A stretch of 64,000 bases of DNA from Anaerolineae bacterium (GTDB taxonomy: Bacteria; Chloroflexota; Anaerolineae; UBA7937), in the NCBI GenBank assembly GCA_034419095.1, contig DAOULQ010000005.1, positions 1,024-65,023 on the forward strand, written 5' to 3'. This document shows, in pieces, positions 31,534 through 50,392 of this stretch. A model generated the notes under the pieces. That model was given only the letters and a program-made list of their open reading frames with translations, had not been told where the DNA came from and did no database searches. A program made the position numbers and the translations under genes. Position 1 is the first letter of the stretch. The number at the start of each line of letters is the position of its first letter.

Positions 31534-32415
31534 TAGATTTCTCCTATTAGGATTCGATTGACGATAATAACCGCCGAAATGGAATCTAACCGCGCCACAT
31601 GCGGACTCACCCGAATGATGCCAGAAGAGATTGCGCGTGTCAACCGTTACCACTGGCCGGTTGTTTGTCAAACCACCATTAGGCGAAGAAAACGCCCGCG
31701 CGCGGCGACTTTTCCTACCACTAAAGATCGTCAAATTGGTAGTTTGACGAGCGTATTCTCGCCATACTACAAGAGGCTGCCGCCCGAAATCCAGCCCTAG
31801 CTCATCACGAGCGATCTTTTCCTCAAAGACACCTTGGAGTCTTGCAAATCAATATACATGACCACCGAGGGGATGCCAGAAGAGAAGAGGAAATGCTGAG
31901 ATTGACAAGGTAGATGGATATGTATAGCCATGATCGATATGTCCTACCAATAGAGCATCATCATGAGCTTTACCGTGCACTGGACTTCGAAAACCTGATG
32001 CTGGGTTCTTTAGCTAGTGGAAGATGGAGAGGATCACCAGGCGAAGGGACGGCTATCGGTCGAGGAAAGGAGGGGTGTAGTGGGTGTGAGTGGTAATTAG
32101 ATACTATGAGTCTCACCCCTGCTGGGGCTTCTGATTACCCATTTCCTGCAAGGGAGGCATCGCATCTCGCCCCCTCCCGAAGCATCATACGAAATTTACG
32201 CCGCAAAACCCGTTCACAGCGTTGGAGTACCAGAGAGCAACCTATGACCCTGTGGATTCCATAAGAAGAGGTGAGGTGTTTGGGTTGACAAGGGAAATGG
32301 GTATCTATACCCATCATGGATGTATCTTCCCAGGAAAGAATCATTGGAGGTCTTGTAAGGCACTGGGCTTCCACGGTCCAACGTTGTGTTCTGGGGTGAA
32401 TACAGGACGGAGAGC

Positions 32416-32772
32416 CTGGCTGTGCATTCCGCAGAAAGATGGGTTACCTTTCGAGCTGGAACTGTGCCTGGCGTGATCTCTCCAACGCAGTGTGATTGAG
32501 AAGCAAAGGGACAAGGATTCAGGGCGAGAAGATCGAATCTTGTGTTGGCGAAATCTATGCTGAGGCTGTGCGCAAGAAGCTTGTAAGGGTGACCCCGAAG
32601 GTCGCGTTCTGCCTGTTACTTGTGTGAACACCGAACGGACCTAAAAACGATAGGTGTTTGACCTTTACAATCGACACCAGTCTACCACGTGGCCGCAAGA
32701 CTCGCAAGAAGCAAGGCGTAGAAGCAGGAGCCAAGAGTCGCTCCTCTTTCATATGTCAGGAAATGAGCGCAG
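32416..32772 (+). repeat. conserved non-coding leader, copy 1 (paralogue of 46371-46798)
   Basis: The first ~150 nt (CTGGCTGTGCATTCCGCAGAAAGATGG...GGCGAAATCTAT) are ~90+% identical by eye to 46371-46515. More similar blocks follow (CTAAAAACGATAGG..TTGACCTT.ACAATCGA...GTCTACCA.GTG, and a GGAGCC...GCTCC hairpin before the start codon). Confidence 0.8.
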
Positions 32773-33253
32773 ATGAGTGAGGAAGACCTGAAGGTAGTTG
32801 GGGAACTCTTCGACAAGGCAAAGGAGAAGTCTGAGCGGGACGGCTACCTGACACCAGTTCTCTTCGCCTGGGCACCCTGTGGGCGCCTGACAATCAGCTT
32901 CATTGAGGGCAATCTGCGCAACATCTTGCCAAGTACGTGCCACACGCTACGGCTCTCGGGCTATGATAGGTTCGCCCTGATAATCGAGGGGTGGATCGTT
33001 CTGGGAGAAGAGAACCTCCAAAGACATCGAAAGCTGGGTAGGAAGGATGCAAGAGCAGCCAAAGGTACAAACCTCTATCCAGATCATCTTTGTTAGCCCA
33101 GAAGAGACCTTTGGCAAGTTTGCCATCTATGATGAGACCCAGGGCGGTTGGGTTCTGCTCAAAGAAGTAGAAAGCACGCCAGATTGGAGCCTCGCTGGTG
33201 TCTTGATAGATGCCACAAAGGGAGGCGTAGATCGAGAACACAAAGAGGAATAA
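32773..33253 (+). pseudogene. frameshifted paralogue of the 159-aa protein at 48059-48538
   Basis: ORFs 32773-33096 and 33047-33253 together align to the whole 159-aa protein. There is one extra C at ~33018-33019 (AACCTCCAAAGAC versus AACCTCAAAGAC). Confidence 0.8.
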
Positions 33254-33289
33254 GGGATCTTTCAGAAGCAGAACCCAACAAGGCAGAGC

Positions 33290-33500
33290 GTGAGAACAGG
33301 AAAAGGCTAACGAACCCCCTCCGTCCTCACTCGAACCCATAAACCAGCCTTATCACCGTATCAGAGCCTCTCTCACCCGTTCTCTCAGGCGATTCTTGGG
33401 GGTAGACAGGAGCCATGGGGCCAGGTGTGATCTCAAGGGTCTAAGCGGGTCTTCATATGATCTTATGCCTAGAAAGAACGTGGCAATGGGAGGGCAGACG
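33290..33500 (+). repeat. R3 dispersed repeat, copy 1 (intact, shows the empty IS110 target)
   Basis: ...CCGTCCTCACTCGAACCCATAAACC...CTCTCTCACCCGTTCTCTCAGGCGATTCTTGGGGGTAG...GTGATCTCAAGGGTCTAAGCGGGTCTT... aligns with 60840-60914 + 62596-62775 and with 59830-60085. Confidence 0.75.
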
Positions 33501-33722: not shown

Positions 33723-36700
33723 TCATGATCGTTTGGCTTCAGGGAAGACGACATACGTGCCATCCTCGACTATCCTTCCATCATTGAGTAGCTCCATGAC
33801 AATATGGTCTACAACAGCGTTCATGTCACTCGTAGTACGCTTGAACCCAAATAGTTTGCATACTTCATTCGGAATCATTTCGCGCTGTATCCCATAAGAG
33901 GCTCCGACAACCTTCGATATCGCTAATTCAATCTCTTCTGGCGCTATCAAGCGAATATGTCGTGATGCATTGGGCAGGCCTGATCTTGAACGAAGCTTCG
34001 GCTGCTTCATACCCGGTCGCCAGAGGAACGGTCCCCTTCCAATTACGAAACCCTCATCAATAGCAGCTCTCAAACCCAGCTCAAAGGTTGTCCGAATTCG
34101 CCTTCCAATTCGCTTAACCCCTGCGCAGTTCGCAATCCGTCTGGCCACTTCGTCCTGGTGAACAGGGCTTTCAGTATCAACCACGTCTTTGATCCAAGCG
34201 GCCATTCGGCGCCGCGAAACTTCATGCAACTGCTCTCTGTAGTATAAGGTAATGTTCGGCTTCGCTGTCTTGTATGGCTCAGAATCAAGGGCAGGTCTTT
34301 TGGCCATTCCTGGCTTGTGCCTCTCGATTGGTGGTGCTCGTTGAACGTGACTGTGTGGCGAACTCATTTCGGACTGCGCCTCAGATGCGCGGTGTCCCTT
34401 GGCTGCCTCAATGCCTTTTTCTAGTCGCTGCATCTCTCGTCCAGGATTGCGAAACCAATCCGTGCTCCAAATTCGATGAATCTGCCAGCCTAAGTTTTCT
34501 AGCACTTCTTGTCGTAGACGATCTCGATCTCGGGCTGACCTTGCGCTGTGGTAGGTTGCGCCATCGCATTCAATGCCAAGCAAGTACCTTCCCGGTTGGT
34601 CCTCATCAACAATCGCGAGATCAATGAAGAACCCTCCGGTTCCAACCTGATGTTCCACTCGATGGCCCAATTGCCTTAGTCTGGCTGAGACAGCTTCTTC
34701 AAACGGGGATTCGACCTCTCCTCCAGAAGGTATAGGAATATCAAGATAACCTGTGTCGGCGTATTTCAGGAATCTCTTCAAGACTTCAACACCTCTAGCT
34801 CTTGTCTTACCTAGGTCTATGTCGTCGGCCTTTAGATTCGTGAATACTTCGCATCGCTTTCGAGCCCTTGTGATTAGGACGTTTAGTCGACGTTCTCCCC
34901 CCTCATGATTCAGCGGACCGAAATTCATGCTCACTCGACCGTCGCTAGTTCGTCCATAGCCCACACTTATGAAAATCACGTCACGCTCATCACCCTGAAC
35001 GTTTTCTAGATTCTTGACGAAGAACGGCTCTTCCGGATGGCTACGGAAGAATTCCTCGCAGGATACATCCTGGCGCCGACCTATCTCAAGTTGGTCCCGA
35101 ATAGCCTCTGTTTGGCTAATACTAAAAGCAGCTACTCCTAACGTAAGGTCAGGGGAGGTTTTTGCGTGGCGCATGATCGCCTCGGCAACCTTCTTGGCTT
35201 CTCCTAGATTTTTGCGACTCTTTCCTCGGTCATACTCCGTATTAGGCAGATAATGATAGAAAAGCCCCACTTCTCTCTTGCCCTTGTCAGGACTAGGGAA
35301 TACAACTAACTTGTTGTGATAAAACTCGTAGTTGGAAACGGTAATCAAGGATTCATGTTGGCTCCTGTAGTGCCAACGAAGCATTCTTTGAGGGATTCCT
35401 TGAGCGACAGATAGACCCAATATGCTCTCAAGGTTGACTGGTTCGCTCTCAGAGTAATCCTCATCCACATCGATCACAGTTTCAAAAAAAGGTGTCGGAG
35501 GGAGTTGGCGATCATCTCCAACAACCACCACCTGCGTTCCTCTCAAGATCGCGCCAAACGCATCAACAGGTTTCACCTGACTCGCCTCGTCAAAGATGAC
35601 CATATCGAAATCTACTGTGTCGGGGGGCAAGAACTTGGCAATCGAAAGTGGGCTCATCATAAAGACCGGCTTCACGACTTGGATGACGTTCCCGGCCTCC
35701 TGCATCAGTTTCCTGATCGGTCTATGACGCCGTTTCTTTGCGAACTCATAATACAGGACACCAAGCTGACCACTAGCTCGATGTTTGGGTAAGGTCTTCC
35801 AATGGTCATAGGCTAGTTGAACACGATTCTGGTCTAGTAATCTCGTATCCAATTCGCAAAACTTCCTCATGGAGAGTTCATGGATTTCACCATCGAAATC
35901 CCGCAATATCGGACGCTCTACCCATGCTCTTTCAAGCAACATGCTTAACCATGTATGTTGGAGGAGATCAACAAGGTGGCGGTGTGCAAGCGGCCATGAA
36001 AGTGAGGTTTCTACAACGCTCTCAAGACCTGTCTCATCTAATTGGCGTGCTAGGCCCCTCAGCGCTATGATTTCTTGTAAACGGTCTAGCTCATTTAGCC
36101 AGTTCTTGAGATGGTTGTCCTGCTCCTTCAAAGGAAGGTCGATGAGCGTCTTGCCCTCTCCAAATCTCATCGACTGATCAAGTTCAAGGCTTTCGATTGC
36201 TTCTTGAGTTGCATTCTCGTGCCCTGCAAGCTTGCTTCTCAATTGAGCGTTCTCTTGTTCAAGGACCGATGAGCCGGCCAAGGTGGCGACGAAGTCTACA
36301 ATCTGAGTTGGCAGTTCGCCTTCATTGATCTTCCTGTGCAATCCTGCAAGCCAACTCGAAATGCCAATTAACTCTTCCCAGTTTGATTGGACGCCTCGCC
36401 ATCTTGCACCAAAGAGATCGCTTGCTTCTTCATTGAAATCTTCTACAGTAGGGGTTAACCTATTGACTTCGAGGATTGCATCAAGAATCTCAAGCTGGCG
36501 GTCGCTGGACTTCGGCAGATCCTTCGTGCAAAGATCGGCCAGTCTTGTCTTAGCTTCCCGGTAACTCCTCGATAGTGTGCGCCACCACTTTGGCCCATAA
36601 TGAGCAATCAAGCCACGGAGCTCCAGGACGTCCTCATCCCATGACTCATCTCTTACGATCTTGTCGTACACGTCGTGCAGGCACTTGATCCTGTGGCCAG

Positions 36701-38510
36701 CTTCTAGGGTCCTCTCAATTTCACTCGCTTTTGCTCCCCAGACTTCTGAATCAACTTTCACCCTCTCCAAATTCGGGGCACTCAAGACAAAATGCGACGT
36801 CTCTAGCATAGTCTTGATCTCAGCTGTTGATGCTGCCTCAGGCAGAAGCAGGAGTTCAGAGACTTCTCTCGAATTGTATCGAAGATCATCAAGTGATTGT
36901 ACTGCATTTGATAACTGCTCTCGAATATGATCCTTCTTGGCCGGAAGGAGGATAGAAACTTGACTTCCCCAAAAAGGGTGGTCAACAGGTCGTCCGATTT
37001 TGTTTATGAAAAGCTGAAGCTCCTCGACCAAGGACAGATTCTCATGGACTTCTTCACTTGTCCAAGTATCCACCGCGCTTATCTCGAGCTTAGGGAGTTC
37101 TATCCCGGAAAGAATCTCTTTGATTTGGATTAGACGACCATATACTTCATAGGGTGTTAATCTACTATCGCCAATCTCTGCATTTACCGCTTTGCTATAG
37201 CCATTCAACCTGGCCTGATGCCGTATCAACTGCTTTGTGTCAACAGGCGCGCCAAGCTTGGGTTGACCCAGTTCTAAGGATCGCTTCAGTTCATCTAGCA
37301 CGATTCTTTTCTTTGTCTTTTGGCTATGCAGTTCTAGGCATGCGTCTCCGAGGCCTACTTGATCCAACCGACGCTTGACTACTTCAAGTGCTGCCATTTT
37401 CTCTGACACAAACAGGACGGTTTTCTCATGACCAATCGCTTCCGCGATTAGGTTGGTTATCGTCTGCGATTTTCCTGTGCCTGGCGGGCCTTGGATGACC
37501 AAATTCCGCCCCTTATTGACTTCGAGAATGGCCAGTATCTGCGAGCTATCCGCATCGACAACATGATGGATTTCTTCTGGAGAGACGTGCGTATCGATCT
37601 CGATTTCATCATTGAATTCCAGCCTGGATCCATCGAACCCATCAAGTGATAGTAGGCTGCGTAGAATTGGATGTCTTTCTGGCCTTGATTCCTCTGACCA
37701 ATTGTTCGAATCAAGATCGTTGAACATCAAGAACTTGCCAAAGGAGAAGAAGCCCAGGGCAACCGCCTTCGTATCCACTTCCCATCTTGGATAATCCCCA
37801 ATCGCCTTTGATATCTCTTGAAAATATGAATTGATGTCGATGTCCTCCGCCTCAGGGAATTCCGGGAGCTTGATCCCAAAATCCGATTGGAGTTTCGCTC
37901 GTAGCGATAGATTCTCGTCAATATCGTCCCCCGAATACCGAACGCGAAATCTCGACCGCACGTTCGATCGGCTAGGCTCAACAGGGACAAGGATAAGCGG
38001 GGCCTTGCGGACATCATCGCTTGATGGAGACTCATACCAATGAAGCATGCCAAGAGCCAGGAATAGTATGTTCACACCCTGCTCTTCTATATAAGTGCGC
38101 GCGGCGTAGTACGTATTCAGTAGACGTCTTTGAAGTGCTTGCGATATATACGGGCTTTGTAGCTTATTATCCATGTGTCGAAGGGCAATTCCGTTCTCAT
38201 CTTCCTCCGGCTGTCCCAAACCTTCGATGATGATGTCTTGCTCCTCTCGAAACAGGGCCTGTTGATTACCCTTCTCTTGTTCTTCCTCAGGGATCGACAA
38301 GAAGGACATTGAACGTCCTTCATTCACCAGAATCCGAAATACTTCGGTGGGAAGCTCATCGATAATTTCAACACCTTTCGTCTTCAGCGGCCTATAGTTC
38401 AGGAGCTTGTTCCGAAGGCTGAGATCGAGAAGGTCTTTGCGTGCGTCATCGAGCGTTGCTCTAACAGGATCTTCGGTTTCCTCGATTGTGGGTATCTCTT
38501 GCTTCTGCAT
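33723..38510 (-). CDS. Hhe-type giant: DUF4011 + Upf1-like SF1 helicase + Vsr/DUF559 endonuclease + DUF3320-like C-terminus
   Basis: 1595 aa. Helicase motifs VIQGPPGTGKSQTITNLI and MVIFDEASQV, then VGDDRQLPP. Vsr-like fold GIECDGATYHS...RDRDRLRQEVLENLGWQIHRIWSTDW. Confidence 0.85.
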   Translation of the reverse strand: MQKQEIPTIEETEDPVRATLDDARKDLLDLSLRNKLLNYRPLKTKGVEIIDELPTEVFRILVNEGRSMSFLSIPEEEQEKGNQQALFREEQDIIIEGLGQPEEDENGIALRHMDNKLQSPYISQALQRRLLNTYYAARTYIEEQGVNILFLALGMLHWYESPSSDDVRKAPLILVPVEPSRSNVRSRFRVRYSGDDIDENLSLRAKLQSDFGIKLPEFPEAEDIDINSYFQEISKAIGDYPRWEVDTKAVALGFFSFGKFLMFNDLDSNNWSEESRPERHPILRSLLSLDGFDGSRLEFNDEIEIDTHVSPEEIHHVVDADSSQILAILEVNKGRNLVIQGPPGTGKSQTITNLIAEAIGHEKTVLFVSEKMAALEVVKRRLDQVGLGDACLELHSQKTKKRIVLDELKRSLELGQPKLGAPVDTKQLIRHQARLNGYSKAVNAEIGDSRLTPYEVYGRLIQIKEILSGIELPKLEISAVDTWTSEEVHENLSLVEELQLFINKIGRPVDHPFWGSQVSILLPAKKDHIREQLSNAVQSLDDLRYNSREVSELLLLPEAASTAEIKTMLETSHFVLSAPNLERVKVDSEVWGAKASEIERTLEAGHRIKCLHDVYDKIVRDESWDEDVLELRGLIAHYGPKWWRTLSRSYREAKTRLADLCTKDLPKSSDRQLEILDAILEVNRLTPTVEDFNEEASDLFGARWRGVQSNWEELIGISSWLAGLHRKINEGELPTQIVDFVATLAGSSVLEQENAQLRSKLAGHENATQEAIESLELDQSMRFGEGKTLIDLPLKEQDNHLKNWLNELDRLQEIIALRGLARQLDETGLESVVETSLSWPLAHRHLVDLLQHTWLSMLLERAWVERPILRDFDGEIHELSMRKFCELDTRLLDQNRVQLAYDHWKTLPKHRASGQLGVLYYEFAKKRRHRPIRKLMQEAGNVIQVVKPVFMMSPLSIAKFLPPDTVDFDMVIFDEASQVKPVDAFGAILRGTQVVVVGDDRQLPPTPFFETVIDVDEDYSESEPVNLESILGLSVAQGIPQRMLRWHYRSQHESLITVSNYEFYHNKLVVFPSPDKGKREVGLFYHYLPNTEYDRGKSRKNLGEAKKVAEAIMRHAKTSPDLTLGVAAFSISQTEAIRDQLEIGRRQDVSCEEFFRSHPEEPFFVKNLENVQGDERDVIFISVGYGRTSDGRVSMNFGPLNHEGGERRLNVLITRARKRCEVFTNLKADDIDLGKTRARGVEVLKRFLKYADTGYLDIPIPSGGEVESPFEEAVSARLRQLGHRVEHQVGTGGFFIDLAIVDEDQPGRYLLGIECDGATYHSARSARDRDRLRQEVLENLGWQIHRIWSTDWFRNPGREMQRLEKGIEAAKGHRASEAQSEMSSPHSHVQRAPPIERHKPGMAKRPALDSEPYKTAKPNITLYYREQLHEVSRRRMAAWIKDVVDTESPVHQDEVARRIANCAGVKRIGRRIRTTFELGLRAAIDEGFVIGRGPFLWRPGMKQPKLRSRSGLPNASRHIRLIAPEEIELAISKVVGASYGIQREMIPNEVCKLFGFKRTTSDMNAVVDHIVMELLNDGRIVEDGTYVVFPEAKRS

Positions 38511-43784: not shown

Positions 43785-44786
43785 TCAGAAAGGAATCTCC
43801 TCCTCCGGGACTTCGTCTTCTTCACGGGTCAAGAACCCCCGGTACAGCTCCGTCCTGAACATCCTGCTGTAGCGCGTCCACTCACTCTCGGTCACGGGCT
43901 CCGTCTGTACATGGTCCATGAATCCACGCAAATCGCCGTCTAACCAATCCGCGTGGTGCAGGGCTAAGGCCTCCAGAGTCTTGGGAGTCACTGGGGAGCC
44001 TCTTTCCTGCGCCCCATGGTGAGCCAGAATGGCGTGCAACAGAGCCACTCTTAGACCTGAGGGGAAGGTTTCTACTCTCACAACAGCCTGGTTGACGATC
44101 AGGGCTCCCTGAACCACATGGCCTACTAGTCTCCCCTCGTCAGTGAGATTGAACCCAGGGGTTGATTCGTAGGCAGACACCTTCCCTACGTCGTGGAGCA
44201 GAGCTGCTGTCAGGAGCAGATCGCGATTCAGCTCGGGATGCCGACCGTAGAGGTATCGGCAGAGATTGGCCACCGCCAATGAGTGCTCCAGTAGGCCACC
44301 TATGCACGCATGGTGATACATTTTGGCCGCAGGCCCTTTGAAGAAGATGTCTCGGAAGGATTGCTCGGACAAGAGAATATCCAGAAGGGCCAAGAGATGA
44401 GGATCCTTGATCTCTCCCACTAAGTGGCCGAGCTCTTCGACCATGTCACTCAGGGATCGCTTCGCGTGGGGCAGGAACTCCTGCAGATCTTCCAACGCGA
44501 TGGGAGTGATCCTGTCGATGTGTATCTGCAATTCGCCTGATTCTGGCGGATAGCTGGTCACAGTTCCATCTACCTGAACGCCAGTGCCTACTTCCAGCAA
44601 GGAGTATAACTGGGTTGGCACATCCCAATACCGTACTTCCACTCGCCCGGTCCTGTCACCCAGCACGGCCTTGAGATAAAGGGAGCCCTCCCTGGTCTGA
44701 GCAAGCTGTTTCTCCAAAAGAACGAAGACCTCGCCCCGCAACCTGGTGCCGTCGCGGAGATCCCTCACGAAGAGACTCTTTGCCAT
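43785..44786 (-). CDS. yhaM: YhaM-like 3'-5' exoribonuclease (OB fold + HD domain)
   Basis: Start set at MAKSLFVRDL. OB-fold N-terminus. HD domain HHACIGGLLEHSLAV...LLHDVGKV. Confidence 0.8.
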   Translation of the reverse strand: MAKSLFVRDLRDGTRLRGEVFVLLEKQLAQTREGSLYLKAVLGDRTGRVEVRYWDVPTQLYSLLEVGTGVQVDGTVTSYPPESGELQIHIDRITPIALEDLQEFLPHAKRSLSDMVEELGHLVGEIKDPHLLALLDILLSEQSFRDIFFKGPAAKMYHHACIGGLLEHSLAVANLCRYLYGRHPELNRDLLLTAALLHDVGKVSAYESTPGFNLTDEGRLVGHVVQGALIVNQAVVRVETFPSGLRVALLHAILAHHGAQERGSPVTPKTLEALALHHADWLDGDLRGFMDHVQTEPVTESEWTRYSRMFRTELYRGFLTREEDEVPEEEIPF

Positions 44787-45367
44787 GGTAGATTCGTAGC
44801 ACCTCCCGATAGGCTCAACAACGACTTCGAACTGTAGGAGTGACAACCCCATCATAGCGTATCCTCACAAAGGATTCAAGGACTCTAGAGGTGGGCCTCA
44901 CCAGTCAAGTGCACGTGTCAACTGCAATCGAATTCTACTACTCGCAAAGGCGTGAAGAGAGGCGGCACCTCCTACTTCATAGATGTTGTCCAGAGAAGGC
45001 AGCCCAGACCTGCTCTTGTGTCACTGCCGAGGTCTGCTTCCTACCCACGAGCACCTCTGCGTTGAGGCTGGCCGCGACACCAGCCGTCCTTTGTCTTGTG
45101 CGAGTACCAGACTTGGCCGTTCTTCTCTCGACGCTTCATCCTCATACCCCCCCTTTTTTCCTGTGGATGGGGGCACCAAGAGAGGTCTACGGGCTTCTCC
45201 CTGGCCCTAGTAACGCCAGGACGGGCTGAGGGCTCGTGGGACGCCTTCTGGGAGTTGTGGTCGATAAGAAGTTGTCAGTTGCCCCGCTAACTCGCTGTAA
45301 GGGCTCTTCTGTGCGTCCCTCGGGTCCTCTTTCTCATTTCTGCCCATGCCTCGCCAGTGGGGATGTT

Positions 45368-45392
45368 GTCCCTCGGGATCCCTGTGGGAAAG
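45368..45392 (+). repeat. REP-like word GTCCCTCGGGATCCCTGTGGGAAAG (copy A)
   Basis: Related copies at 45443-45467, 45652-45677, 45825-45848 and 46165-46182, and outside the region at 1684-1708. Confidence 0.7.
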
Positions 45393-45442
45393 GCGATGTT
45401 GCTTACCTGGCTATCGCTGTTGGCAGCCTCGATAGCCTCGCG

Positions 45443-45467
45443 GTCCGTCAAGGATCCCTGTGGGAAA
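45443..45467 (+). repeat. REP-like word GTCCGTCAAGGATCCCTGTGGGAAA (copy B)
   Basis: See copy A. Confidence 0.7.
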
Positions 45468-45651
45468 TGTGCATTCTCTGGCGTCGTAAGTGCCAAGGTC
45501 TGGGAAGTCGAAGCCCTGGTATGGAAAGAGGAGAGGAGAGCTTTATCAAGCCCGGAGGCCATCTAGGCAGCCGTGCAAGCCCGCTACCAGGCCCTCAATG
45601 CAGACCAGCTTCACAGTGAACTTGAAGCATCTAAGACGGAGATAGATCGTC

Positions 45652-45677
45652 TTCCGTCAAGGATCCCTGCGGGAAAA
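45652..45677 (+). repeat. REP-like word TTCCGTCAAGGATCCCTGCGGGAAAA (copy C)
   Basis: See copy A. Confidence 0.7.
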
Positions 45678-45824
45678 GAAGCAAGAGGCCGACCTTGATA
45701 TACCTTCATCGGGTTGGGGAGTACGCTGAGGAACTGCTACCTGCGGAGGTTTGGAGATTGAAAGAAAGCCAGAGGAGGACCACAAGCAGGCATCACGAGC
45801 TCAAGCGTCAACTACTCGTAATCT

Positions 45825-45848
45825 CTTCCCGTAGGGATCCTGTAAGGA
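45825..45848 (+). repeat. REP-like word CTTCCCGTAGGGATCCTGTAAGGA (copy D, diverged)
   Basis: See copy A. Confidence 0.55.
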
Positions 45849-46370
45849 CAAGCGGCTGAGCGAATGCAGAGCCTCGAGACTACTGCGTGCGGCCAAGCCG
45901 AAACCTGGAGAGCCTGGATTTTGATTAGAAGCGCCTTGTGTTGGAAGCCCTAGACGTTCAAGCTATCGTGGACGGCAAGAAGGTTATGATTAGAGGGTTT
46001 TTGCCTATTGGAAGCCCTTCGTTCATCCCTGCGTCCTTTACACCAACATGTAGCCATTCCAGGGAAAAACACCCCACCATTGCCTTTGAGTTGGCGGCAA
46101 TGCTGGCCTAAAGATCGCAGTAACTAGGACATGAAGACAGAGGAGCTTATCGAGTACGCCTATACGGAGATCCCTGCGAGGCCCAAGCCCTTTTGCTGGG
46201 AGAGAGGGTCGCTCTGTTGGAGGGTGAACTAGGGTGCGCGGTGCGGCGGTACTGGTGCGCGCGTTCGAATCCCCGGAGGAATTCAGAATAAAGGCGCGCA
46301 CCCTAGAACTGGTCTTCGCCTAAGCCTGCTGGCGTAGTGTGAGTGAGAAGCATGGGAAGGGGGATTGAGA

Positions 46371-46798
46371 CTGGCTGTGCATTCCGCAGAAAGATGGATT
46401 AGCCTTCGAGCTGGAACTGTGCCTGGCGTGATCTCTCCAATGCAGTGTGAGTGAGAAGCAAAGGGAGAAGGATTCAGGGCGAGAAGATTGAATCTTGCGT
46501 TGGCGAAATCTATCTGTTGTCTGCGTGAAGACCGAACCAATCTAAAAACGATAGGCTTTTGACCTTCACAATCGAGATTAGTCTACCATGTGACTGAAGG
46601 ACTCGCAAGAATCGAAGCAAATAGCGAATAGATATAAAGCATGTGAGGTCGAGATTGCACCCACAACATCCTGGTGTTATAGATGCAATATTAGGTTACC
46701 TTTCGAGGTGCAACTCGAATTAGAACCCGGGGGTACAGGGGTGGGACGCAGAGGAGCCAAGAGTGGCTCCTCTCTCATATCTCACGAAAGGAGGACCC
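46371..46798 (+). repeat. conserved non-coding leader, copy 2 (paralogue of 32416-32772)
   Basis: Homology with copy 1 starts sharply at CTGGCTGTGC. It carries an extra ~125-nt insert and ends with the perfect hairpin GAGGAGCCA-AGAG-TGGCTCCTC just before the RBS. Upstream, 46330-46370 partly duplicates an internal block (GTGTGAGTGAGAAGCA.GGGA). Confidence 0.8.
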
Positions 46799-48034
46799 AT
46801 GAAAGATGAAACAGTAGGGGCAAGTCAAAGCCAAGACGTTGCTGATCAATTCGAGGTTGTAGGGATAGACGCTGCCTTGCTACTGGAGGAGAAATCCCTT
46901 GGCCGAGTGCTGAGGGCGGTTGAGAATCTCGGCAAGGACAGGAAGTACCTCATCCTCACCCTCGAAGGCGATAGCACTGAAGAGGCAGCCAAAGCTTTTG
47001 TGAAGGACTTCGGGCTAGCTGCCAGCGAGATTAGGCAACTATCTCGAAGGATCGATGAAGCCCCAGTCCTCATTGGCAGCGTCCTGGGTCGAGACGGAGA
47101 CTGGACTCTGGCAGAGAAGATCGTGGCTGGAAAGAAGATCCTCCACCTGGCAAAGCGAAGAAGTCCCTTCATCAGTGTATTCAAACCTCCCCGGGGGGTA
47201 GTCTGTCACAGGTTCCACAAACTAGTCCTGGGAACCGAATGCCCCTATGACTGCTCCTATTGCTACCTCCAACTTACATTCCGGATGGCTCCATACACCA
47301 GGCAGTACCTCAACCTGGAGGACCTGTGGCAAGAAATGGAAAGGCTCAACAGGAAGATAAACAAGCCCATACTCCTGAATACGGGCGAGCTGGCGGATCC
47401 ATTGGCGACGGATCACATCACAGGTATCGTGAATGAAGTGGTCTCTCAGATGTGGAAATATGAGAGGCTGCAATTGCTCCTCCCAACCAAGAGTGCAAAC
47501 GTTGACCATCTACAACCGGTGGATAATGGACGAGTGGTCTTTAGCGTGAGCCTGACAACCCCAGAGAATGCCAAGGAGTTCGAACATGGGGCTGCAGAAC
47601 CCTACGATCGGATTGAGGCTCTGAGTATGGCTGAAATGAAGGGTTACAGGACGCGATGCAGGATTGACCCTATCATCTGCGGGAATGAGGATTGGGAAAC
47701 AGACTATAGAAGATTGATAGAGGCCCTCTTTGAAAAGGGCAAGGTTGAGATGATAACGTTAGGCCAGCCAAGGTTCCATCCTCCCCTTCTGAACTTGGTT
47801 CGTAAGCGCTATCCAGAGGCTGGTCAGGTCCTGTCCAGGCTTCCACCTTGGCCTGGCATGGAGACATCCCTGGCTGGTAACCCAAGTGACAGGATTGACG
47901 TCTATCGGAAGATATTGAGCATGATCGATGAGCATAGCCGGGGAAATCGTCCTCTCATGATGATGTGCAAGGAAGACCCTGCCACTGTGCGAGCCCTCAA
48001 CTTTAAGTATCGGAGATGCAATTGTCTGGCGTAG
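46799..48034 (+). CDS. radical SAM enzyme of the spore-photoproduct-lyase-like (SplB/COG1533-type) family with ~150-aa N-terminal extension
   Basis: Start at MKDETVG with AGGAGG upstream (411 aa). CxxxCxxC cluster motif in LGTECPYDCSYCYLQL. The downstream TIM-barrel-like region resembles SPL-family proteins. Confidence 0.7.
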   Translation: MKDETVGASQSQDVADQFEVVGIDAALLLEEKSLGRVLRAVENLGKDRKYLILTLEGDSTEEAAKAFVKDFGLAASEIRQLSRRIDEAPVLIGSVLGRDGDWTLAEKIVAGKKILHLAKRRSPFISVFKPPRGVVCHRFHKLVLGTECPYDCSYCYLQLTFRMAPYTRQYLNLEDLWQEMERLNRKINKPILLNTGELADPLATDHITGIVNEVVSQMWKYERLQLLLPTKSANVDHLQPVDNGRVVFSVSLTTPENAKEFEHGAAEPYDRIEALSMAEMKGYRTRCRIDPIICGNEDWETDYRRLIEALFEKGKVEMITLGQPRFHPPLLNLVRKRYPEAGQVLSRLPPWPGMETSLAGNPSDRIDVYRKILSMIDEHSRGNRPLMMMCKEDPATVRALNFKYRRCNCLA

Positions 48035-48058
48035 GCCGCTAACAAGAAAGGAGGCCAA

Positions 48059-48538
48059 ATGAATGAGCAAGACCTAAAGATTGTTAGGGAACTCTTCAAC
48101 AGGGCAAAGGAGAACTTTGAGCGGGATGGCTACCTAGCACCAGTCCTCTTTGCCTGGGCAATGGGTCGGCCCCCGACGATCAGCTTCATTAAGGGCAATC
48201 TCCACAACATCTTGCCAGGTATGTGCGACACTCTACGGCTCTTGGGCTATGACAGGTTCGCCCTCATAATCGAAGGATGGATCGTTATGGGTGAAGAGAA
48301 CCTCAAAGACATCGAGCGTTGGGTGGGAAGGATGGGAGAGCATCCAAAGGCACAAACCTCTATCCAGATCGTCTTCGTTAGCCCAGAAGAGACCTATGGC
48401 AAGTTTGCCGTCTATGACGAGACCGAGGCCGATTGGGTCTTAGTCAAAGAGGTAGAAGCAGCGCCAGATTGGACCCTAGCTGGTCTTCTGATAGAGGCGA
48501 TGAAGGGGAGTGTAGATGGAGAAGACACAGAGTGGTAG
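48059..48538 (+). CDS. hypothetical 159-aa protein (paralogous pseudogene at 32773-33253)
   Basis: AAAGGAGG RBS, 24 nt after the radical SAM stop. No recognisable motif. Confidence 0.7.
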   Translation: MNEQDLKIVRELFNRAKENFERDGYLAPVLFAWAMGRPPTISFIKGNLHNILPGMCDTLRLLGYDRFALIIEGWIVMGEENLKDIERWVGRMGEHPKAQTSIQIVFVSPEETYGKFAVYDETEADWVLVKEVEAAPDWTLAGLLIEAMKGSVDGEDTEW

Positions 48539-48574
48539 GGGATTCGCGCAAATGAGTGTCATGTAGGTAGAGCA

Positions 48575-48700
48575 TGAGAGAACGAAAAGGCAATGAGCCC
48601 CTTCCATCCTCGCCCGGTCCGGGCTGCTGTAGCCCGCACGGACTCCTCGCACCCACGGGTAGGAAAGGATAGCCACGCCCTCAAGTATCTTCGCCCACCA
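48575..48700 (+). repeat. R3 left-part-like sequence (diverged, truncated)
   Basis: GAGAACGAAAAGGCAATGAGCCCCTTCCATCCTCGC...TCGCACCCACGG parallels GAGAACAGGAAAAGGCTAACGAACCCCCTCCGTCCTCACTCGAACCCA at 33290-33340. Confidence 0.45.
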
Positions 48701-48707
48701 TCCCTGC

Positions 48708-49223
48708 TCAGGCTGAAGGCGCCAGGTGGCAACAGCGCATGCTCATACGAACCATCAGCATGATCAAAGCCTCATCCCTTGGTCTATTTCCTTTCTGAAC
48801 CGCCCGAACTAGAGCATATTGTTCTCTTCTGGTCAGCCACTTCGGGGCGGTCCGCACCTCAGGAACTATACCGATCTCATCACAGGGATTGCCATCGGCA
48901 AGCCCCTGCTCCTGTGCCCACTCGCAGAAGGCGGATATGCTGGCAACTCTTCTGTTGACTGTGGCTGGCTTGAACCCCCGATCCTCCAAGAGGTAACGCT
49001 CATACTCTCTGAGATCGATCGGGGTTCTGGATTGTGGGGTTAGCTCTTCCTTATTGGTTTCGTAGAACCACTTGGCAAGGAGCTTGAGGTCACTAGAATA
49101 GGATTTGATGGTACGTTCCCTTCTGTCGTGTGAGGGCAGATGGTCGATGAATCGTCGGAGGAGTTCTGAGATCCGTTCAACCTGTCCCCTCCCCCGCAGC
49201 CTTTCCTGTTGACTACGTGACAT
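48708..49223 (-). pseudogene. truncated tyrosine recombinase (XerC/D-like N-terminal SAM-like domain only)
   Basis: 171 aa. The core-binding domain (TIKSYSSDLKLLAKWF...ATVNRRVASISAFCEWAQEQGL) runs into the start of the catalytic domain (RPRDEALIMLM), then gives way to unrelated residues and a stop. Confidence 0.7.
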
Positions 49224-49531
49224 TATCTTAGGCGTTTTTCTCGCCTTATCTAGTACATTGTAGCAGCGGTGTCAATACAGTCAACGCCATTTTCCTAAGA
49301 TGAGCATACTTATATGAGGAGATGTTCGATCGGGGGGCTGGGCCCGCAAAAGGCCACGGTGGGTGATAGGTTTTAGGGGTCATCGTGGCTACAGGAAAGA
49401 CAATCCTAACCGGCAACTTGGGCGACAGGCATGCTACACTGTCATATCGTAAAAAGCAGCCCCATCTGGCCTCAACATGCAGATGTCTCCACTGTCGAGC
49501 TTGTCGCATTTGACTAAGACATACCGGAATC

Positions 49532-49560
49532 TTGACAAGGCGATAGAGACATGGTATACT
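49532..49560 (+). promoter_or_regulatory. sigma-70-type promoter (TTGACA-17 nt-TATACT) for the regulator/catabolic cluster
   Basis: TTGACA at 49532-49537 and TATACT at 49555-49560, ~38 nt upstream of the regulator start. Confidence 0.55.
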
Positions 49561-49597
49561 TACTACTAAAGGCTAGAAAGGTTACTCAACACAAAGC

Positions 49598-50392
49598 ATG
49601 TTTTGGCGAATCAGCGAGGTGGCCGAAGCCATTGGTGTCAGTCCCAGTGTCTTGCGGTACTGGGAGAGCAGAGGGCTCATTGCCTCACGTCGTTCCTCGA
49701 AGGGATACAGGTTGTATTCGGAGAACGACATTACGCTTCTCAGGAAGGCCAAATATCTTCGAGAGGTCATGAAGATGAGCCTGACAAGTATAGCTCGTGT
49801 GCTTCACGAGCAAGCTAATGGCGAGCCACACGATTCCGAATCATCCTCGTCTTCAGCGGAGATTGGCAGGCGGCTGCGGGCAATCCGCAGGCGGAAACGT
49901 ATCTCTCTACGCGAGATTGCCGAGCAAAGTGGCCTCTCGACTTCCTTCATCAGTTTGTTTGAGCGAGGCCTTTCTAACATCGCGGTCGACAAGTTGCGTG
50001 GACTGGCAAGTGCATATGGAACGACCGTTGGCGAGCTGTTGGCATCCGAAGGCGAGAGTCCGCGAAGACGGGTGAAGCCCGCAGAAAGGCGCTACCTCGA
50101 AACAGGTGGTGTGAGGGTCGAAAACTTGTCACTTGGACCGTTGCGGTTAATGGAGCCACAACTATTCACTGTTGAACCGGGCGCGGGTAGTGAAGAAGCC
50201 TATGCACACGATGGAGAAGAATTCCTATTTGTGATGGAAGGTCGCTTCGACGTGTGGCTCGACGAGAAGGAGCACTATGAGCTTGAGGCTGGCGACAGTC
50301 TATACTTCCCTAGTTCTGTTCTGCATAGATGGAGCAATCCTGGTGAAAAGCCTGCCAGAATTCTGTGGGTGAACAGTCCACCTACGTTCTAG
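49598..50392 (+). CDS. three-module regulator: MerR-type HTH + XRE-type HTH + cupin sensor domain
   Basis: 264 aa. ISEVAEAIGVSPSVLRYWESRGLI (MerR HTH), ISLREIAEQSGLSTSFISLFERG (XRE HTH), and C-terminal cupin GEEFLFVMEGRFDVWL...GDSLYFPSSVLHRWSN. Confidence 0.8.
   Translation: MFWRISEVAEAIGVSPSVLRYWESRGLIASRRSSKGYRLYSENDITLLRKAKYLREVMKMSLTSIARVLHEQANGEPHDSESSSSSAEIGRRLRAIRRRKRISLREIAEQSGLSTSFISLFERGLSNIAVDKLRGLASAYGTTVGELLASEGESPRRRVKPAERRYLETGGVRVENLSLGPLRLMEPQLFTVEPGAGSEEAYAHDGEEFLFVMEGRFDVWLDEKEHYELEAGDSLYFPSSVLHRWSNPGEKPARILWVNSPPTF

Follow-up and report, generated by a model that had tools for sequence, protein, structure and literature searches.

The cassette and its two genes

We analysed a stretch of 64,000 nucleotides from an Anaerolineae (Chloroflexota) genome (G000, assembly GCA_034419095.1, 3.09 Mb in 252 contigs), which corresponds to positions 1024–65023 of contig C5 (DAOULQ010000005.1) and is referred to here as the window. 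It contains two adjacent genes on the forward strand that encode a radical S-adenosylmethionine (SAM) enzyme and a small protein. The radical-SAM gene (46799–48034) encodes 411 aa from its ATG, or 423 aa if a GTG at 46763 is used, and is preceded by the Shine-Dalgarno sequence AAAGGAGG at 46787–46794. The small gene (48059–48538) encodes 159 aa, has its own AAGGAGG and begins exactly 24 nt downstream. The cluster motif of the 411-aa protein is formed by C148, C152 and C155 within VLGTECPYDCSYCYLQ, and the CxxxCxxC cysteines in GTECPYDCSYCYLQ are invariant across family alignments. Both open reading frames (ORFs), the gap and the motif agree with the original prediction, which had been made from the sequence alone and had proposed that an enzyme resembling spore photoproduct lyase (SPL), together with a dedicated small partner, could be a DNA-modification, repair or defence pair.

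The two genes lie in a cassette of ~2.2 kb (leader, radical-SAM gene, small gene and tail), which is the moving unit. The non-coding leader (46367–46798, forward strand) was delimited by blastn against the genome itself and related loci and by junction alignment; by the same comparisons, its gene-proximal part (~46525–46798) is 75–91% identical across related loci. One leader type heads whichever gene stands first, the radical-SAM gene or the small gene. The right end is a conserved tail of ~73 nt (48539–48611, forward strand), shared with a second cassette copy in the window and with the metagenome loci L025, L028, L029, L031, L034 and L037. The flanks of loci carrying the pair differ, with glycoside hydrolases and a ComM/ChlI fragment in L001 and sugar dehydrogenases in L003.

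An SPL-family enzyme that is not spore photoproduct lyase

The 411-aa protein is a radical-SAM enzyme of the SPL family, as had been proposed from the sequence, and is not a spore photoproduct lyase. It matched the Pfam model PF20903 (SPL) with 86.1 bits (cut-off 27, E 2.7e-24), but its score with the SplB equivalog TIGR04070 was only 87.3 bits, where the cut-off is 400, and with TIGR03886 27 bits, where it is 437. A PDB search with a 30-sequence profile returned the SPL of G. thermodenitrificans as its sole match (E 3e-39). The AlphaFold model (pLDDT 90, pTM 0.89) was compared with known structures using Foldseek, and the strong matches were all SPL structures (E ~1e-19, TMt 0.77–0.79, ~390 columns), with LipA and BioB next at E ~5e-5. 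Given this match, the N-terminal region cannot be regarded as the ~150-aa extension without relatives that had been described for it. It is mostly an alpha/beta domain of the SPL type, as described in PMC3467042, with about one additional beta-alpha unit; the first cluster cysteine is residue 148 here and ~91 in B. velezensis SplB, making the region ~57 aa longer.

Residues were mapped by alignment to wild-type G. thermodenitrificans SPL (4FHC), with roles taken from PMC3467042: Tyr96 and Tyr98 form a radical relay, Lys174, Ser195 and Arg273 contact SAM, Cys140 is the hydrogen-atom donor and Arg193 binds the lesion. The tyrosine pair corresponds to Y154 and Y156, and the SAM contacts correspond to K231, S251 and R325, with K231 and R325 invariant in the family. 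Likeness to SplB therefore extends over the alpha/beta N-domain and partial (alpha/beta)6 barrel, CxxxCxxC, the CxYCY tyrosine pair, the three SAM-binding residues and QxRF. In contrast, Cys140 (Cys141 in B. subtilis) is replaced by Glu197, RFEAACTSD of 4FHC being aligned to LLNTGELAD, and this glutamate is invariant in all 30 of the 30 aligned family sequences. Arg193 is replaced by Ser249, no confident beta-hairpin is modelled and additional conserved cysteines are present.

An alternative donor exists in clostridia, namely Cys77 of C. acetobutylicum, at the position of Ser76 in G. thermodenitrificans. The invariant C136 of the window enzyme lies in the same pre-cluster segment, but in the profile alignment it is 8 residues off the S76C position and falls within a 6-residue insertion. 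Lacking Cys140, the enzyme could finish the reaction in the manner of SplB only if C136 took the role of the clostridial Cys77, so its product is probably not repaired thymine. The cysteines that are invariant and specific to the clade are C136 (in VCHxF, just ahead of the cluster loop), C390 (in CKE) and C407 and C409 of a C-terminal CNC; we hypothesize that these four residues may form an auxiliary metal site.

Comparison with defence and mobile-element collections gave little. Neither the window protein nor four orthologues had a hit in PADLOC, the DUF5131 models PDC-M30B/M41B included. An analogy to viperin-like defence enzymes had been suggested, yet the PADLOC pVip models reached only E 0.065 and 10.7 bits, covering the cluster motif alone. 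The only matches in the phage collection were two unannotated gut phage contigs (~25% identity), and those in the plasmid collection were ordinary splB or SPL-family genes (23–30% identity). Radical SAM mobile pair proteins A and B (TIGR04471/TIGR04470) are likewise a mobile combination of a DUF5131-like and an SPL-like protein. Similarity to pair protein B is weak (18.2 bits against a cut-off of 410), and no pair-A gene adjoins the window enzyme.

A patchy accessory gene of the CNC clade

In a maximum-likelihood tree, one half comprised true SplB together with generic SPL-family proteins of ~365 aa from Binatia, Omnitrophota and others and two ‘SPL family’ proteins from plasmids. The other half (support 99/96) comprised proteins with a CKE..CNC C-terminus, referred to here as the CNC clade. 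It includes short forms, two SPL paralogues encoded in the same genome (contigs C81 and C134) and an N-extended clade (100/98), within which the Anaerolineales proteins cluster tightly (100/100) as sister to two members adjacent to DNA methyltransferase genes. Close relatives are labelled as Chloroflexi or uncultured Anaerolineales.

A close copy of the radical-SAM gene was detected in 1 of 60 related genomes, from the same family and another genus; it is truncated by the end of a contig and has 86% identity, and that genome also carries a pseudogene containing stop codons. An intact copy is absent from all six genomes of the same genus, two of which hold short relics; relics of the gene are recorded for G001, G006 and G007. 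In a scan of GTDB with one genome per species, only 2 of the 80 best loci belonged to the N-extended clade. Since no intact copy is present in the same-genus genomes and relics and pseudogenes are common, the gene is accessory and not core: it is mobile, patchy and often decaying. The possibility raised in the original prediction, a syntenic core gene in relatives that lack the small gene, therefore does not hold. The accessory status that had been read from the flanks of the locus thus holds. In these respects the gene is also unlike splB, being a member of a separate clade in a non-sporulating host with no splA.

TcmP and methyltransferases beside enzyme relatives

TcmP directly adjoins an orthologue of the radical-SAM gene in four independent loci (TIGR04474, E 1e-37 to 1e-65; PADLOC PDC-M30A/M41A). 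It is convergent in a Bacillota metagenome-assembled genome, where it is broken into two ORFs (L004/L005/L057), in Desulfohalotomaculum tongense, where its neighbours are an MkoC-like helicase-PLD protein of 1326 aa and a protein weakly matching Pfam KwaB (L006/L007), and in L022, near conjugation genes, MazE and a Schlafen-like gene. In L136/L137, it lies upstream and overlaps the start of the radical-SAM gene by 4 nt. Methyltransferases are the neighbours elsewhere. In L008, a 573-aa methyltransferase of the N6/N4 type lies 41 nt downstream of the orthologue, integrases stand to either side, and 4 kb upstream is a TcmP+DUF5131 pair whose DUF5131 protein hits PADLOC at E 1e-112 to 1e-117. In the freshwater metagenome locus L023 (1–7356), an operon encodes a Dam-type methyltransferase, a BrnA-like protein of 143 aa, a TRM-like methyltransferase of 502 aa, an SMC/LmuB-like protein of 794 aa, a protein of 383 aa and, with an 8-nt overlap, the SPL-like enzyme.

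The paralogues of the window genome have similar company. On C134 (15296–17505; L054 4296–6505), a 379-aa TcmP is followed after 20 nt by a 349-aa SPL paralogue with the CKE..CNC C-terminus, adjoining serS. On C81 (12573–16794; L055 3574–7794), a 321-aa SPL paralogue ending in RCNCV has a full-length tyrosine recombinase on one side and, on the other, a 534-aa gene resembling adenine DNA methyltransferases. In 78 further GTDB loci with generic SPL-family genes, no TcmP lay nearby. From the neighbourhoods of orthologues and paralogues, the usual partner of the enzyme clade is TcmP or a methyltransferase. The DNA-modification or defence role that had been suggested for the window genes gains indirect support, because orthologues adjoin TcmP or DNA methyltransferases on mobile and defence islands.

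TcmP is also the partner of DUF5131 proteins in the PADLOC candidates PDC-M30 and PDC-M41, and RadicalSAM.org places DUF5131 and SPL as neighbouring subgroups of megacluster 5 (PMC9477430). The window enzyme resembles such uncharacterised modules of TcmP with a three-Cys or radical-SAM protein (TIGR04474; PDC-M30/M41) in that TcmP adjoins its orthologues at 40–50% identity, as well as a paralogue encoded by the same genome, on mobile or defence islands. The mobile or defence context of these modules is likewise found here: the window locus has a truncated integrase, repeats and a patchy distribution, and its orthologues lie near integrases, conjugation genes, the MkoC-like protein and KwaB. 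The differences are that the window enzyme has no TcmP, is SPL-like with a canonical CX3CX2C and not DUF5131, and has the 159-aa orphan next to it instead. Based on these comparisons of sequence and gene order, the locus is a TcmP-less member of a catalogued mobile SPL-like module that probably acts on DNA.

Several observations on these neighbourhoods may be added. In L006 (7219–13141), the 1326-aa protein matched PADLOC MkoC (Mokosh) at E 6e-144, and the protein with the weak KwaB match has 148 aa; both lie beside the pair of TcmP and the radical-SAM enzyme. The six genes of the L023 operon may constitute a modification or defence system that is yet undescribed. TcmP also occurs near SPL paralogues of the same-genus genomes G001 and G005 (L012, L013). 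Two invariant motifs of TcmP, YxDxxAGxG and FxDPF, are similar to motifs I and IV of methyltransferases. A PDB profile search with TcmP gave no match, and hhalign of TcmP against two neighbouring methyltransferases was non-significant (E 0.33 and 0.15). The best stretch, with the TRM-like enzyme of L023 (941–2449), covers its DIDPFGS at the non-significant E of 0.15, and we claim no methyltransferase fold for TcmP. In the literature, we found no paper that ties SPL-like enzymes to defence, and TcmP is mentioned only in passing, in gene tables.

The 159-aa protein belongs to a rare orphan family

The 159-aa protein, described as unknown in the original prediction, remained without a match in Pfam, NCBIfam, PADLOC and PHROG, as did its remote relatives. 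It is predicted to have an alpha+beta fold and contains the motifs DGYxxP, ExW and GRxxEHP. It is acidic (pI 4.6, net charge -12), although its distant relatives are not uniformly so. A word-indexed search recovered ~50 relatives, nearly all 73–88% identical, many of which share contigs with radical-SAM relatives. When 1.84 billion representatives were searched exhaustively with a profile, 16 hits were obtained, a few of which are remote relatives of 150–177 aa sharing the motifs. The nearer relatives P0171 and P0175 are on contigs of ~1 kb, with no radical-SAM gene directly upstream.

With remote relatives included in the alignment, AlphaFold gave a model with pLDDT 86.5 and pTM 0.81. Against the PDB, Foldseek found no real match for it (best E 0.012, TM below 0.2), and a sequence-profile search of the PDB with the small protein returned nothing. 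Against BFVD, Foldseek found nine uncharacterised phage proteins (E 6e-7 to 3e-4, TMq 0.5–0.68). These proteins, such as S5Y969 of Mycobacterium phage Catdawg, share the predicted fold and have sizes of 150–280 aa, but they are only 11–17% identical in sequence. No hit was obtained by tblastn of the small protein in 50,697 phage records, and one remote homologue lies within a prophage-like stretch with SNF2 and HNH genes. Taken together, the 159-aa protein is a member of a rare, phage-linked orphan family and is possibly phage-derived.

The two genes are separable

A scan of metagenomes with the small protein detected 26 loci, and cassette forms were told apart by tblastn of both proteins and by comparison of the ~270-nt leaders. 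The complete arrangement of leader, radical-SAM gene and small gene was found in the window and in at least eight metagenome loci (L026, identical to L001; L036, identical to L003; L025; L027; L031; L035; L037; L039), with the radical-SAM gene frameshifted in L037. The pair therefore recurs, but its co-occurrence is confined to one narrow Anaerolineales lineage. The leader is joined to the small gene only in seven loci (L028, L029, L030, L032, L033, L034 and L038), among them L034, which retains a 29-codon relic of the C-terminus of the enzyme ahead of the small gene.

The same form is present in the window itself. The second cassette copy (32412–33328, forward strand), traced by tblastn, blastn and ORFs, has no radical-SAM gene and consists of a leader (32412–32767) fused to a frameshifted small gene (32773–33253) and then the tail. 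Its small gene is broken into ORFs of 107 and 68 aa, and the copy directly adjoins a gene for a 1595-aa helicase-nuclease (33723–38510). The converse form, leader and radical-SAM gene only, was found twice (L051/L052 and L053), and in these loci the small gene has left no trace. The junction of the small-only form lies in a repeated region of ribosome-binding site and start codon, CAxGAAAGGAGG..ATG, which reads CACGAAAGGAGGACCCATGA before the radical-SAM gene and CAAGAAAGGAGGCCAAATGA before the small gene. Such near-identical repeats offer a simple route for exact loss or gain of the radical-SAM gene.

Pairwise dN/dS was 0.15–0.24 for the radical-SAM gene and 0.21–0.41 for the small gene, two small-gene comparisons with stop codons or frame problems being disregarded. 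These values hold for both genes in solo loci as well, with 0.19–0.21 in the intact radical-SAM-only loci L051/L052 and L053. Given purifying selection that includes solo loci, both genes appear to be functional and each can be kept without the other. The small gene is absent from all orthologues of the enzyme at 40–50% identity, which align over the full length including the N-domain. Because TcmP or DNA methyltransferases accompany relatives of the enzyme elsewhere, the 159-aa gene is regarded as a common neighbour that can be dispensed with, and the dedicated small partner of the original prediction finds little support.

Proposed function and alternatives

With a probability of roughly 0.55, we interpret the locus as a functional, mobile SPL-family radical-SAM enzyme of the CNC clade with a DNA-modification role in genetic conflicts, accompanied by the small gene as separate cargo. 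Judging from SPL homology and the neighbouring genes, the enzyme would bind DNA and flip out a base or lesion, and a 5'-deoxyadenosyl radical would abstract a hydrogen from the base, as in SPL. The outcome would be other than spore-photoproduct repair; more likely, a DNA mark would be added, elaborated or removed in the course of restriction, anti-restriction or defence. A role in conflicts between mobile elements, phages and hosts is suggested by the recurrent neighbours of the clade, TcmP and DNA methyltransferases, which lie on integrative, conjugative and defence islands. In the Anaerolineales lineage, the enzyme may have lost the adjacent TcmP and may work alone or with the TcmP encoded on C134 in trans. 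The 159-aa gene would be a second, independently functional cargo gene and not an obligate subunit, and the two genes would separate by deletion or insertion between the near-identical ribosome-binding-site repeats.

A number of observations weigh against this interpretation. The DNA substrate is deduced only from SPL homology and the neighbour genes, and a search with a TcmP hidden Markov model gave no hit in the window or any of the Anaerolineales cassette loci, so the enzyme may act differently there. SPL has DNA-binding features comprising a beta-hairpin (Arg304/Tyr305), which is thought to push into the DNA, and Lys309. In the window enzyme, the putative DNA-inserting hairpin region (347–361) is a low-confidence coil in the model, with pLDDT <50 at 352–359, and lies beyond the sequence alignment; moreover, basic residues retained by other clade members have been lost from this loop in the Anaerolineales clade. 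The window copy also carries L229P (codon 229, 47483–47485), two residues before the SAM-binding Lys231 in a core strand. This is its sole departure from columns that are at least 90% conserved, other copies having 0–2 such changes, and the window enzyme may be slightly impaired by it, or the change may be an assembly error. Finally, the tight spacing of 21–30 nt on the same strand is kept in nine loci (the window and eight others) and would still allow a functional link between the two genes.

That adjacency, kept in spite of differing flanks, is the best argument for a dedicated two-component system, in which the 159-aa protein would replace TcmP as a regulator, inhibitor, immunity factor or targeting subunit and both proteins would jointly carry out DNA modification, repair or defence. 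That both genes are constrained by purifying selection fits such a system, the small gene takes the position held by TcmP or a methyltransferase in orthologous loci, and its acidity and phage-linked fold relatives would suit an inhibitor or a DNA mimic. We nevertheless consider it unlikely: the seven small-only and two radical-SAM-only loci are intact and constrained under the same leader, the orthologues at 40–50% identity all lack the small gene, P0171 and P0175 have no radical-SAM gene directly upstream on their ~1-kb contigs, and acidity is not kept across the wider small family. A bolder version, which we regard as a long shot, would have a phage-derived 159-aa protein replace TcmP as an inhibitor, on-switch or specificity factor, giving a new two-component system for writing or erasing a so far undescribed base modification of DNA during conflict between phage and host, with the four additional cysteines binding an auxiliary iron-sulfur cluster that shifts the chemistry away from lyase-type repair. 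Enzymes that keep their constraint without the small gene (L051/L052, L053) also speak against a toxin-antitoxin-like pair, in which the enzyme would damage nucleic acid and the small acidic protein would neutralise it. The two-gene operon, the small acidic second gene and the mobile context recall such systems, but a type II toxin is not kept without its antitoxin, clade members elsewhere do without such a partner and neither protein matched known toxin-antitoxin families in the Pfam, NCBIfam, PADLOC and PHROG scans; this idea we find the hardest to credit.

The substrate might also not be DNA. An enzyme acting on RNA (tRNA or rRNA), protein or a small molecule, with TcmP as an RNA-methyltransferase-like partner, would be in line with the loss of the lesion-binding arginine (Ser249), the degenerate hairpin loop and the ‘DPFG’ stretch common to TcmP and the Trm1-like TRM methyltransferase of L023. 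The hhalign match behind that likeness is non-significant, however, the neighbours include clear N6/N4 and Dam-type DNA methyltransferases as well as restriction and defence genes, and the only characterised member of the family acts on DNA, which makes this reading rather improbable. Housekeeping repair, by a true SPL orthologue or an equivalent enzyme for UV or radical damage, is very improbable. The SPL fold, Tyr154/Tyr156 and the SAM-binding residues are retained, and relatives go by the name of ‘spore photoproduct lyase’ or ‘DNA repair photolyase’ in some sources. Yet the equivalog score falls far short of its cut-off (87 against 400 bits), the donor cysteine is a glutamate, the protein belongs to another clade than SplB, and the gene is absent from same-genus genomes and frequently decayed, in a non-sporulating Anaerolineales bacterium from sediment metagenomes with no splA-like neighbour.

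To our knowledge, SPL is the sole characterised member of this large radical-SAM family. A mobile SPL branch without the donor cysteine, with four additional cysteines and in the company of TcmP and methyltransferases points to undescribed nucleic-acid radical chemistry, possibly a new DNA modification or defence. The window adds an enzyme that is kept under selection without an adjacent TcmP and a rare phage-linked small-protein family in the same cassette. As the case for a dedicated pair is weak, the locus is chiefly useful as a natural TcmP-less variant.

Surroundings of the cassette

The repeat debris and truncated integrase that had been noted around the genes are both present. Upstream, a gene-poor stretch (44900–46366) has no long ORFs and contains direct and inverted repeats of ~24 nt at 45368–45849; it is treated as context and not as part of the cassette. 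The genes flanking the locus encode an OB-fold+HD protein (YhaM-like, 43785–44855) and a MerR+XRE+cupin protein (49598–50392), and seven genomes of the same genus or family contained no match to either at E <= 1e-30. The whole neighbourhood is therefore variable, and no empty site can be defined.

An Rfam scan of 44800–49700 revealed no structured RNA. In a scan for promoter and terminator consensus, sites were no commoner than in shuffled sequence, and none was usefully placed for the operon. The leader contains a hairpin, GGAGCC-N6-GGCTCC (46753–46770), just upstream of the Shine-Dalgarno sequence; its stems are kept in all leader copies, with a different loop in L030, and it may act as an operator or a recombination site, or be left over from a terminator.

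Downstream of the tail, on the reverse strand, lies a truncated tyrosine recombinase (48708–49223), in which Pfam and NCBIfam models recognise the SAM-like domain of the N-terminus but no more than the beginning of the catalytic domain. The possibility that the cassette had split an integrase was followed by seeking the missing half through the homologue on C22, and was set aside because the C22 copy is itself not an intact ORF. The integrase fragment (48780–49320) is part of a multi-copy element, with similar fragments on C22 (4282–4826), C52 and C168.

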